Assembly: GCF_013122565.1 (NCBI RefSeq)
Contig: NZ_CP053258.1
DNA from: Escherichia coli
GTDB lineage: Bacteria; Pseudomonadota; Gammaproteobacteria; Enterobacterales; Enterobacteriaceae
DNA length: 64,000 nt
Direction: 5' to 3' (one strand)
Position numbers and translations under genes: made by a program. This document shows, piece after piece, positions 3,631 through 5,800 of the stretch (the stretch's first letter is position 1; each line of letters begins with the position of its first letter). The notes beneath the pieces were generated by a model. It was given only the letters and a program-made list of their open reading frames with translations. It had not been told where the DNA came from and searched no databases.

Positions 3631-4434
3631 ATGAACGCATTATTAACCAATCCCTTTAAAGAACGTTTACGCAAGGGCGAAGTGCAAATTGGTCTGTGGT
3701 TAAGCTCAACAACTGCCTATATGGCAGAAATTGCCGCCACTTCCGGTTATGACTGGTTGCTGATTGACGGGGAGCACGCGCCAAACACCATTCAGGATCT
3801 TTATCACCAGCTACAGGCGGTAGCGCCCTATGCCAGCCAACCCGTGATCCGTCCGGTGGAAGGCAGTAAACCGCTGATTAAACAAGTCCTGGATATTGGC
3901 GCGCAAACTCTACTGATCCCGATGGTCGATACTGCCGATCAGGCACGTCAGGTGGTGTCTGCCACGCGCTATCCTCCCTACGGTGAGCGTGGTGTCGGGG
4001 CCAGTGTGGCACGGGCTGCGCGCTGGGGACGCATTGAGAATTACATGGCGCAAGTTAACGATTCACTTTGTCTGTTGGTGCAGGTGGAAAGTAAAACGGC
4101 ACTGGATAACCTGGACGAAATCCTCGACGTCGAAGGGATTGATGGCGTGTTTATTGGACCTGCGGATCTTTCTGCGTCGTTGGGCTACCCGGATAACGCC
4201 GGGCACCCGGAAGTGCAGCGAATTATTGAAACCAGTATTCGGCGGATCCGTGCTGCGGGTAAAGCGGCTGGTTTTCTGGCTGTGGCTCCTGATATGGCGC
4301 AGCAATGCCTGGCGTGGGGAGCGAACTTTGTCGCTGTTGGCGTTGACACGATGCTCTACAGCAATGCCCTGGATCAACGACTGGCGATGTTTAAATCAGG
4401 CAAAAATGGGCCACGCATAAAAGGTAGTTATTGA
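3631..4434 (+). CDS. rhmA: 2-keto-3-deoxy-L-rhamnonate aldolase (HpcH/HpaI family)
   Basis: 267-aa protein from ATG 3631 (SD AAGGAA upstream); the ORF-track entry 3328..4434 is an artefactual N-terminal extension overlapping rhmT. Confidence 0.85.
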
Positions 4435-4440
4435 TATCAA

Positions 4441-4467
4441 AGGCCCATGGGGATCGGCTGTGGGCCT
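4441..4467. terminator. Hairpin between convergent rhmA and ypaA (aggccca...tgggcct)
   Basis: 7-bp inverted repeat with 13-nt loop in the 40-bp gap between convergent genes. Confidence 0.4.
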
Positions 4468-4474
4468 GTGTTAA

Positions 4475-4696
4475 TTAGTGGTTATTCGCTGCCAGATCGG
4501 CTTCGCTTAGCTGGGTGGCCGCGAGCACCAGGTCACGATCAATGCCCTGTTCCAGCATGCGCAAAGCAATTTTAATGGCTTGTTCATGCATACCTTCCTG
4601 CAAACCTTCTAATTTACCTTGCTGCAAACCTACTAATTTACCTTCTTGCCAGCCAATTTGATGTCCTTCCTGCCGTAGCCGTTCAGCAATAGTCAT
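4475..4696 (-). CDS. ypaA: Small protein paralogous to the C-terminal ~56 aa of RpnB, with a repeat expansion
   Basis: 73 aa from ATG 4696 (ORF track begins one codon earlier at TTG); AAGGAGAG SD; near-identical at DNA level to rpnB 3' end; 12 nt downstream of rpnB stop. Confidence 0.7.
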   Translation of the reverse strand: MTIAERLRQEGHQIGWQEGKLVGLQQGKLEGLQEGMHEQAIKIALRMLEQGIDRDLVLAATQLSEADLAANNH

Positions 4697-4708
4697 CAAT
4701 CTCTCCTT

Positions 4709-4879
4709 TTAATGACAGTTCGGAATATCAGCATCAGTGAGTTGGGTTGCCGCCAGCACAATCTCACGTTCAAAGCCCTGCTCCAGCATGCGCAAAGCAA
4801 TTTTAATGGCTTGTTCATGCATACCTTCCTGCCAGCCAATTTGATGTCCTTCCTGCCGTAGCCGTTCAGCAATAGTCAT
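4709..4879 (-). CDS. Candidate in-frame internal small ORF within rpnB (56 aa, RpnS-like)
   Basis: Internal ATG at 4879 preceded by SD AAGGAGAG with 5-nt spacing, the same context as ypaA; shares frame and stop with rpnB. Confidence 0.45.
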
Positions 4880-5608
4880 CAATCTCTCCTTTTGTAGTGG
4901 TGAACGTTCGGCAATCTCCTCAATAAAACGGGTGAAACGGGAGGTATCGCCGCATTGCAGCAGATAATTAAACAGTGTTTGTAGCTGGCTGTCATTAGTG
5001 AAGCCTTTAACCAAAAGCGTGGTGATCCTGTCGACCATACCGATTAAATCGCGGTCGCGAATATGCTTTTGAATCAGTTCAAGCAGAGCTATACGCCGAT
5101 GTTGCATGATCTCATCGTCAGGTACGATGGTGATATCCACCAACGGAAAAGCTTCGGTGTACAACTGCCGGGCAAGTTGCGGATCGTCAAACTCATCCAG
5201 CCAGTTAAGTGAGTACGGGTAGGGCGAGGTTTCGCCATGATAAAACAGCAATGGCACCACCAGCGGAACTCTGTCATAGCCTTTATCCAGGTGACGCTGC
5301 ATGGCGGCAGTGGCATAGCGCATTAGCCGAAAAGCCATATTCTTTTCTGCAGAGCTTTGATGTTCAATCACGCAGTAGATATAACCGTCACCGTCGCTGG
5401 TTTCCACGGACCACAAAACATCCGAGTAGTAAGCGCGTAAACTTTTTTCAATAAAACTGGTGGGTTCCAGGCGTAAGGTTTGCAGGTTGCAAAGCTTGCG
5501 CAGCGGCTCTGGTAGATGTATTTCCAGAAAATCCCGTGCGGTTTCGGGTGTGAACATAAAGGTTTTAAACACCGCATCATGCGGGGAGGAGGTTGTTGAT
5601 TCGGTCAT
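4709..5608 (-). CDS. rpnB: Recombination-promoting nuclease, YhgA-like (Rpn) family
   Basis: 299-aa ORF; synteny with K-12 yfaD between glpC and rhmA; family assignment from recall. Confidence 0.8.
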
Positions 5609-5754
5609 GGTTGTCCGTCACCTGATATTTATGATGACGCGACATTACGGTTATCCCAGGCCTTTGACATCTGCCAGTTTCAGCCTTTGCGAGACGTTTT
5701 CAGAGGAATTTTCACTGCGTTGCAACGCATACATTGGGCACGGAATCGTGTACG

Positions 5755-5790
5755 CAAAAATGCCCGGTAACAACATGCTTACCGGGCATC
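5755..5790 (-). terminator. Rho-independent terminator of glpACB
   Basis: Read on minus strand: gcccggtaagc-loop-gttaccgggc hairpin followed by TTTTT, immediately 3' of glpC stop. Confidence 0.6.
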
Positions 5791-5800
5791 AGAAGGGAGT

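Follow-up and report, generated by a model that had tools for sequence, protein, structure and literature searches.

The Rpn genes form a gene-within-a-gene toxin-antitoxin family, an interesting piece of biology that was published between 2019 and 2023. In each of the five rpn genes of E. coli, ribosome profiling with retapamulin revealed peaks at internal start codons that lie in frame (Meydan et al. 2019, 10.1101/520783). Zhong et al. 2023 (PMC10400941) describe small C-terminal Rpn proteins as antagonists of toxic Rpn nucleases, with a role against phages. In their experiments the long proteins RpnA, RpnB and RpnP2 lose their toxicity in the presence of the small one, which likewise blocks SOS induction for RpnA and RpnB, and DNA cleavage in vitro for RpnA. 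Binding and inhibition of the cognate long protein (RpnL) are shown there for RpnA, RpnB, RpnC and RpnP2, and the plasmid-borne RpnP2 is reported to protect against some phages. The crystal structure of RpnA-S (7TH0) is a dimer of three-helix bundles joined via their long first helix, and all E. coli small proteins (RpnS), as well as their stand-alone copies (RpnSs), vary between strains by 4-aa repeats in helix 1 (PMC10400941). For RpnC, the one protein on which the repeat-matching rule was established, neutralisation occurs only with equal repeat number, and a difference of one unit abolishes it (PMC10400941).

Second RpnS copies are explicitly named in the commentary by Koonin (PMC10400984). 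According to Zhong et al., a stand-alone rpnSs copy can disappear in two ways, by deletion or when it is fused to the N-terminal region of rpn, and ypaA, which they renamed rpnE-Ss, stems from rpnE and amounts to a second RpnE-S. The likeness of the rpnE internal product to the independent gene ypaA had already been remarked on (10.1101/520783). In K-12, internal initiation in rpnE and its tagged small protein are documented by Ribo-RET/Onc112 profiling and SPA tagging (bioRxiv 10.1101/520783 and PMC10400941), and the latter source reports that tagged RpnE-S and tagged YpaA were both detected as proteins. RpnE from K-12 was, on overexpression, the sole Rpn protein without toxicity, SOS induction or recombination (Kingston 2017, PMC5350276). 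The RpnE construct of that study would have co-expressed RpnE-S.

We analyzed a window, that is, a stretch of 64,000 nucleotides of E. coli DNA (contig NZ_CP053258.1), in which an rpn gene with an internal small ORF is followed by a duplicate of that ORF. What we see is very probably the rpnE (yfaD)-ypaA locus on the chromosome of an E. coli-like organism, a member of the published Rpn family. All of the anatomy that we observe, together with its interpretation, is already in print (Meydan 2019; Zhong et al. 2023). Our addition is small, and consists of the invariance of the ribosome binding site and start codon in 58 loci, the independent variation of repeat number in the two copies, and one more allele combination.

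Identity of rpnE and of its nested ORF

The main ORF of the locus (4709..5608, minus strand) encodes RpnE-L, a protein of 299 aa with a PD-(D/E)XK / Transposase_31 domain at its N-terminus and a helical domain at its C-terminus. Residues 8-209 match Pfam PF04754 (Transposase_31) with an E-value of 4.7e-88. The protein reaches 698.8 bits on the NCBIfam equivalog NF007418, against a cut-off of 583, while it scores 422 bits on the RpnA model (cut-off 583) and 175.9 bits on TIGR01784 (cut-off 52.1). A direct count in the translation places D11, D63, E82, Q84, R94 and D165, all of which were mutagenised in RpnA (Kingston 2017, PMC5350276), at the same numbers in RpnE-L, so that the PD-(D/E)XK catalytic positions (RpnA D11, D63, E82 and Q84) are all present; the correspondence between the two proteins is one of numbering and of alignment to the full-length RpnA model, not of structure.

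The original prediction had named this gene rpnB, which proved to be its sole factual error: the gene is rpnE (yfaD), not rpnB (yfcI). This identity follows from RefSeq annotation, in which the orthologue is called rpnE in many genomes, those of the K-12 type included, from the position between glpC and yfaU, and from the equivalog score together with the PF04754 domain. The published equivalences (RpnB = YfcI, RpnE = YfaD; Kingston 2017, PMC5350276) and the placement of ypaA downstream of rpnE by Zhong et al. 2023 (PMC10400941) speak against rpnB in the same way. Of the 5,426 complete genomes of E. coli, 5,420 match the region, always on the chromosome and between glpC and yfaU; the gene order of the window is glpC-rpnE-ypaA-yfaU. 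An exact look-up of the window's RpnE sequence found no record of it, and the best complete E. coli genomes are 97.3-98.1% identical to the window. The K-12 locus agrees with it in position and gene order, in the length of RpnE (299 aa) and of the nested product (56 aa), and in the Shine-Dalgarno sequence.

Inside rpnE, an ATG at 4879-4877 opens the nested in-frame ORF rpnE-S (4709..4879, minus strand), which has its frame and stop in common with rpnE and encodes 56 aa plus stop. Immediately 5' of this ATG the sequence reads AAGGAGAG (4891-4884), followed by ATTG; the Shine-Dalgarno element (4884..4891, minus strand, read from the sequence) is thus separated from the start codon by 4 nt when counted from the 8-mer, or by 6 nt when counted from its GGAG core. 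An internal ATG at 4879 behind such an element, and a 56-aa C-terminal product, had been predicted, and both are borne out by the sequence and its translation; the predicted spacing of 5 nt needs correcting to one or other of these values. A Shine-Dalgarno sequence and a start codon lying in frame towards the 3' end of the rpn gene are what characterizes an RpnS. The internal-start context ACAAAAGGAGAGATTRATG is unchanged, except at base -1, in 58 of 58 loci that carry both copies, and the same holds for the Shine-Dalgarno sequence and ATG of ypaA, the only variation in either copy being A or G at -1.

A consensus scan detected no sigma-70 promoter within 4350-5800, and the support for an internal promoter at rpnE is published K-12 dRNA-seq rather than the window sequence. 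RpnE belongs to the same Pfam/NCBIfam family as RpnA-L/RpnA-S, RpnB, RpnC and RpnP2, and its internal start lies at the corresponding point of the gene; these systems and the rpnE locus also have in common a three-helix small protein whose helix 1 contains 4-aa repeats.

ypaA, a stand-alone duplicate of the small ORF

The stop codon of rpnE (TAA, 4711-4709) is followed by exactly 12 nt (AAGGAGAGATTG), then by the ATG of ypaA at 4696. ypaA (rpnE-Ss; 4475..4696, minus strand) encodes 73 aa plus stop and is a stand-alone duplicate of rpnE-S. The ORF lister placed its start at a TTG at 4699, which is not conserved, since K-12 reads ATTAATG at the same place. The two copies have in common a block of 62 nt, made up of the Shine-Dalgarno sequence and the first 47 coding nt, which is exact at its upstream site (4830..4891, minus strand) and its downstream site (4647..4708, minus strand, including the ypaA Shine-Dalgarno sequence at 4701-4708); no such match arose in 100 shuffles. 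Beyond this block, the alignment of rpnE-S and ypaA shows a gap of 48 nt, then another 51 identical nt, and finally a diverged 3' third. The codons differ by 7 synonymous and 6 non-synonymous changes, 12 of these 13, six of each kind, in the last third. At the protein level, YpaA and RpnE-S are 64% identical (47/73, gaps included), with identical first 19 residues and different tails, SEADLAANNH in the YpaA type against TDADIPNCH.

Because the duplicate starts exactly at the Shine-Dalgarno sequence and ends at the stop, ypaA results from the tandem duplication of 183 bp at the end of rpnE, comprising the Shine-Dalgarno sequence and the small ORF. It has the two marks of an RpnSs, namely an ORF of its own immediately downstream of the parent and a derivation from that parent's own RpnS. 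The predicted placement of ypaA 12 nt past the rpn stop, its identical start context and its status as a 73-aa paralogue all hold, and the stretches that had been described as near-identical turn out to be exact over 62 nt. In K-12 the spacer is likewise 12 nt long, and YpaA ends in the same tail. A small-ORF tandem duplicate derived from RpnC likewise lies directly downstream of its parent gene and, by the phylogeny of Zhong et al. 2023, is of independent origin. It is absent from the window, where tblastn with RpnE retrieves only the two copies described here. Between the convergent ypaA and yfaU lies a G+C-rich hairpin (4441..4467, no strand assigned) with a 10-bp stem containing 6 G-C pairs, which is terminator-like as a consensus match only.

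For the family of the small protein we draw on precomputed data, from which we take the assignment of PF27070 (HTH_Rpn_C) to the window's exact YpaA and its relatives. Our own Pfam scan of YpaA gave a marginal Yae1_N hit and returned neither PF27070 nor a significant match to PF14261. The PF27070 family sets YpaA apart from the stand-alone DUF4351 (PF14261) proteins, under which separate RpnS-type genes of some species are annotated according to Zhong et al. A search of PDB sequences matched YpaA residues 33-71 to the RpnA-S chain 7th0 (E 7.7e-4). The top sequence matches in that search were designed PPR proteins, which we disregarded as sums of weak repeats worth about 4 bits per stretch.

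The AlphaFold2 model of YpaA (mean pLDDT 73.7) contains helices at residues 17-49, 54-61 and 65-70, with high confidence in the C-terminal core and low confidence over the repeats (pLDDT 51-58). Its best fold match among solved structures is 7th0 (probability 1.00; TM 0.76, target-normalised). YpaA is thus predicted to adopt the three-helix RpnS fold (HTH_Rpn_C) with its long first helix, and RpnE-S has the same core. Neither RpnE nor YpaA was matched by PADLOC (2023), which is without a model for either.

Repeat number in the window and across strains

The basal repeat tract of rpnE and rpnE-S (4823..4846, minus strand) consists of two 12-nt units, HQIG WQEG, and has 0 extra units; in other strains, 2-12 extra units occur at this site. 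In ypaA, the tract (4592..4663, minus strand) comprises six 12-nt units and occupies residues 12-35 of the protein, starting at residue 12; most of it is borne by the long helix 17-49 of the model, which extends past the tract. In one placement, positions 4592-4639 of ypaA are 48 extra in-frame nt absent from rpnE-S and coding KLVGLQQGKLEGLQEG, that is, four extra 4-aa units (KLVG LQQG KLEG LQEG). Tandem Repeats Finder reports 2.5 copies of period 24 with 88% matches at 4591-4649, and a period of 12 as well. The 48 nt agree with the two extra 24-nt copies of the original prediction, whose repeat coordinates were off by about one base. The window therefore contributes one further allele combination, RpnE with 0 extra units beside YpaA with 4. 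The repeat number of this YpaA is not that of the resident RpnL (4 against 0), an inequality that bears on function and not on homology.

The comparison covers 72 loci, 58 of them with both copies, taken from complete genomes and from assemblies; a metagenome scan by junction pattern yielded just 2 two-copy loci, too few for statistics. The presence of 4-aa repeats 8-20 residues after the initial methionine, in a number variable between strains, is another RpnS character found here. Extra units range from 0 to 12 in rpnE and RpnE-S and from 0 to 6 in ypaA, which provides the between-strain variation in ypaA repeat number that had been proposed as a check. None of the 58 two-copy loci has a broken ypaA; its length is always 57+4n aa, with changes in multiples of 12 nt, and the lengths in the database run from 57 to 89 aa in 4-aa steps. 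K-12 combines an RpnE-S of 56 aa (0 extra units) with a YpaA of 61 aa (1 extra unit), whereas the window has a YpaA of 73 aa (4 extra units); a few substitutions also separate the two loci. The window's exact YpaA occurs on at least 23 other contigs, where the places shown have an RpnE of 307, 319 or 323 aa, corresponding to 2, 5 and 6 extra units.

The fetched loci fall into 18 distinct (rpnE, ypaA) repeat configurations, which are phylogenetically non-independent, and the two numbers match in one of them, a (2,2) locus. By our own arithmetic, about 2.3 matches would be expected under independence against the one observed, a difference that is not significant. The two repeat numbers thus appear, from sequence comparison, to vary independently, with no sign of either co-variation or avoidance. 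A systematic mismatch between YpaA and RpnE-S, which would have suggested selection, was considered when none of the first 15 configurations matched, and was abandoned when the (2,2) locus was found.

The same tract sequences are found in either copy, depending on the strain: KIEGWQEGKLEGLQKGKVEGM, for instance, is in rpnE at three loci (L014, L019 and L025) and in ypaA at others (L046-L055). ypaA is absent from about one third of evenly spaced E. coli rows among the genome matches. In four single-copy loci (L005-L007 and L011), rpnE bears the YpaA-type tail SEADLAANNH, which fits the deletion/fusion route described by Zhong et al. In all of the E-type and Y-type proteins the helix-2/3 core H37-G51 is invariant. 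The original view of the orphan as evolving by repeat expansion agrees with the longer ypaA of the window but must be widened, as both copies vary; judging from these alleles, the 0-unit rpnE of the window could equally be the product of contraction.

Possible roles of YpaA

The expected workings of the locus can be drawn from its better-studied paralogues. rpnE would produce the 299-aa PD-(D/E)XK nuclease RpnE-L, and the strong Shine-Dalgarno sequence and ATG in its 3' end would have the last 56 residues translated on their own as well. The resulting RpnE-S would be a three-helix protein whose long helix 1 provides a dimerisation surface common with RpnE-L. In RpnA, RpnB, RpnC and RpnP2, the small protein attaches to the C-terminal domain of the long one, and the nuclease stays inactive until a trigger, probably phage infection; by analogy RpnE-S would bind the identical C-terminal domain of RpnE-L and keep this nuclease inactive. 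It is for those paralogues that toxicity, inhibition, complex formation and defence against phages have been demonstrated, whereas RpnE was inactive in the 2017 assays; the toxin-antitoxin relation is therefore attributed to RpnE by homology only. The background of the original prediction, in which small Rpn proteins antagonize toxic nucleases and act against phages, is confirmed by PMC10400984 and by PMC10400941. Its scheme of one nuclease with a cognate and an orphan inhibitor matches the anatomy, and the orphan status suits the count of 4 against 0 units, but toxicity is extrapolated, the K-12 RpnE having been inactive.

ypaA is presumably co-transcribed with rpnE and rpnE-S, as no consensus promoter of its own was found. 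In view of the four-unit difference and of the one-unit rule known from RpnC, the YpaA of the window would most likely dimerise with itself and pair poorly with RpnE-L, making it a decoupled paralogue rather than a second cognate antitoxin. Differences in copy number would probably arise when the 12/24-nt units slip or recombine unequally. Where rpnE-S and ypaA recombine with each other, ypaA would be deleted and an rpnE with the YpaA-type tail would remain, as may have happened in about a third of E. coli genomes. The independent drift of the repeats, and the occurrence of the same tracts in either copy, lead to a bolder suggestion that we consider rather unlikely, namely that YpaA is no antitoxin for the resident RpnE but a decoupled, independently drifting specificity cassette. 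The data allow this reading; they do not establish such a role. In a weaker variant, YpaA could neutralise non-resident RpnE alleles or a phage mimic.

That YpaA is instead a working second antitoxin of the resident RpnE-L, adding dose or a separate mode of regulation, seems to us doubtful. The identical Shine-Dalgarno sequence and N-terminal 19 residues, the invariant H37-G51 core and the expression of YpaA in K-12 (PMC10400941) are all as this explanation would have them, the matched (2,2) configuration (L058) provides one case of equal numbers, and Koonin has suggested that a second copy may give regulatory flexibility (PMC10400984). A single-unit mismatch was however sufficient to abolish RpnC neutralisation (PMC10400941) and the difference in the window is of four units; moreover, the numbers are unequal in 17 of the 18 configurations and vary independently, and the tail residues are unlike. 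Decay into a functionless fragment is a poorer explanation still, and we regard it as improbable. It would account for the absence of ypaA from many strains, for the lack of an assigned function and for the pseudogene flag ('incomplete, missing N-terminus') that PGAP attaches to the gene in many RefSeq genomes. A decaying sequence is nevertheless hard to reconcile with an ORF intact in every two-copy locus, with length changes that are all multiples of 12 nt around an invariant start signal, with a divergence from rpnE-S of which about half is synonymous, or with the detection of the protein in K-12 (PMC10400941).

The RefSeq/NCBIfam product name 'ISNCY family transposase' and the Pfam name Transposase_31 invite a last interpretation, in which rpnE is a transposase and the ypaA duplicate a by-product of transposition. 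We hold this to be very improbable: the gene occupies a fixed site between glpC and yfaU in 5,420 of the 5,426 complete genomes and was matched on chromosomes only, Zhong et al. (PMC10400941) report neither terminal inverted repeats nor target-site duplications around rpn genes, and a duplicate spanning exactly from Shine-Dalgarno sequence to stop is that of a tandem duplication. Such names have a practical side, as PGAP often labels the intact ypaA a pseudogene fragment and rpnE an 'ISNCY transposase', wrongly in both cases.

Since RpnE is the one K-12 paralogue inactive in toxicity assays (PMC5350276), the natural rpnE/ypaA repeat combinations form a ready test set for the rule that repeat number sets specificity. 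Should YpaA prove to be a specificity cassette, recombination between the copies could exchange the C-terminal module of rpnE, or fuse it, and re-set the pairing of RpnE-L and RpnE-S in one step, giving a defence gene a small diversification device of its own.

The chromosomal setting of rpnE and ypaA

The window is collinear throughout (1-64000) with the E. coli chromosome, its gene order running from yfaV through glp, nrdA, yfaL, gyrA, rcsCD, ompC and napA to ccm. It shares just 97.3-98.1% identity with the best records in a set of 5,426 complete genomes of E. coli, so its source falls outside that set. Over window 1-22000 the alignment with these records is split into 5-6 pieces, and the records are longer by about 1.9-2.7 kb of DNA; there is therefore an insertion/deletion difference between them and the window somewhere in the yfaL-nrdA-glp region. 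Between the convergent genes ypaA and yfaU lies a G+C-rich hairpin of 10 bp (window 4441-4467), which could act as a bidirectional terminator; its T tail is weak on the reported strand.

Sequence relationships of YpaA

The internal product of rpnE has been described as 98% identical to YpaA (Meydan et al., bioRxiv 10.1101/520783). By BLASTP, the K-12 pair (3' end of rpnE and ypaA, L001 1389-1800) shows 46/61 identical residues, or 75% with gaps, the two products being distinguished by a 4-aa insertion and a differing tail.

The helix formed by the 4-residue xxxG repeat of YpaA (residues 8-53; window 4592-4663) gives two weak profile matches, one to the flagellar protein FliH in NCBIfam (E 1.9e-5, far under the cut-off), the other to Yae1_N in Pfam (E 0.0012). 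FliH and Yae1_N proteins contain helices with GxxxG-type glycine repeats. The likeness of YpaA to either family looks compositional rather than homologous.

Occurrence and annotation of the locus

The exact YpaA of the window is also present in GCA_014105675.1 (locus L021, 1-1722), in which no upstream rpnE is called. The place of rpnE is occupied by a large gene that encodes Toprim, D5_N and primase domains, which suggests a mobile element that either replaced rpnE or inserted beside ypaA.

Among RefSeq orthologues of window 4475-4708 (loci L002-L004, L008-L010 and L012-L014), the ypaA ORF is intact, yet in many genomes it is listed by PGAP as the fragment of a pseudogene, with the label 'incomplete; partial in the middle of a contig; missing N-terminus'. 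The product name given by PGAP to rpnE is 'ISNCY family transposase'. In view of the published biology, both labels, fragment for ypaA and transposase for rpnE, look like annotation artefacts.
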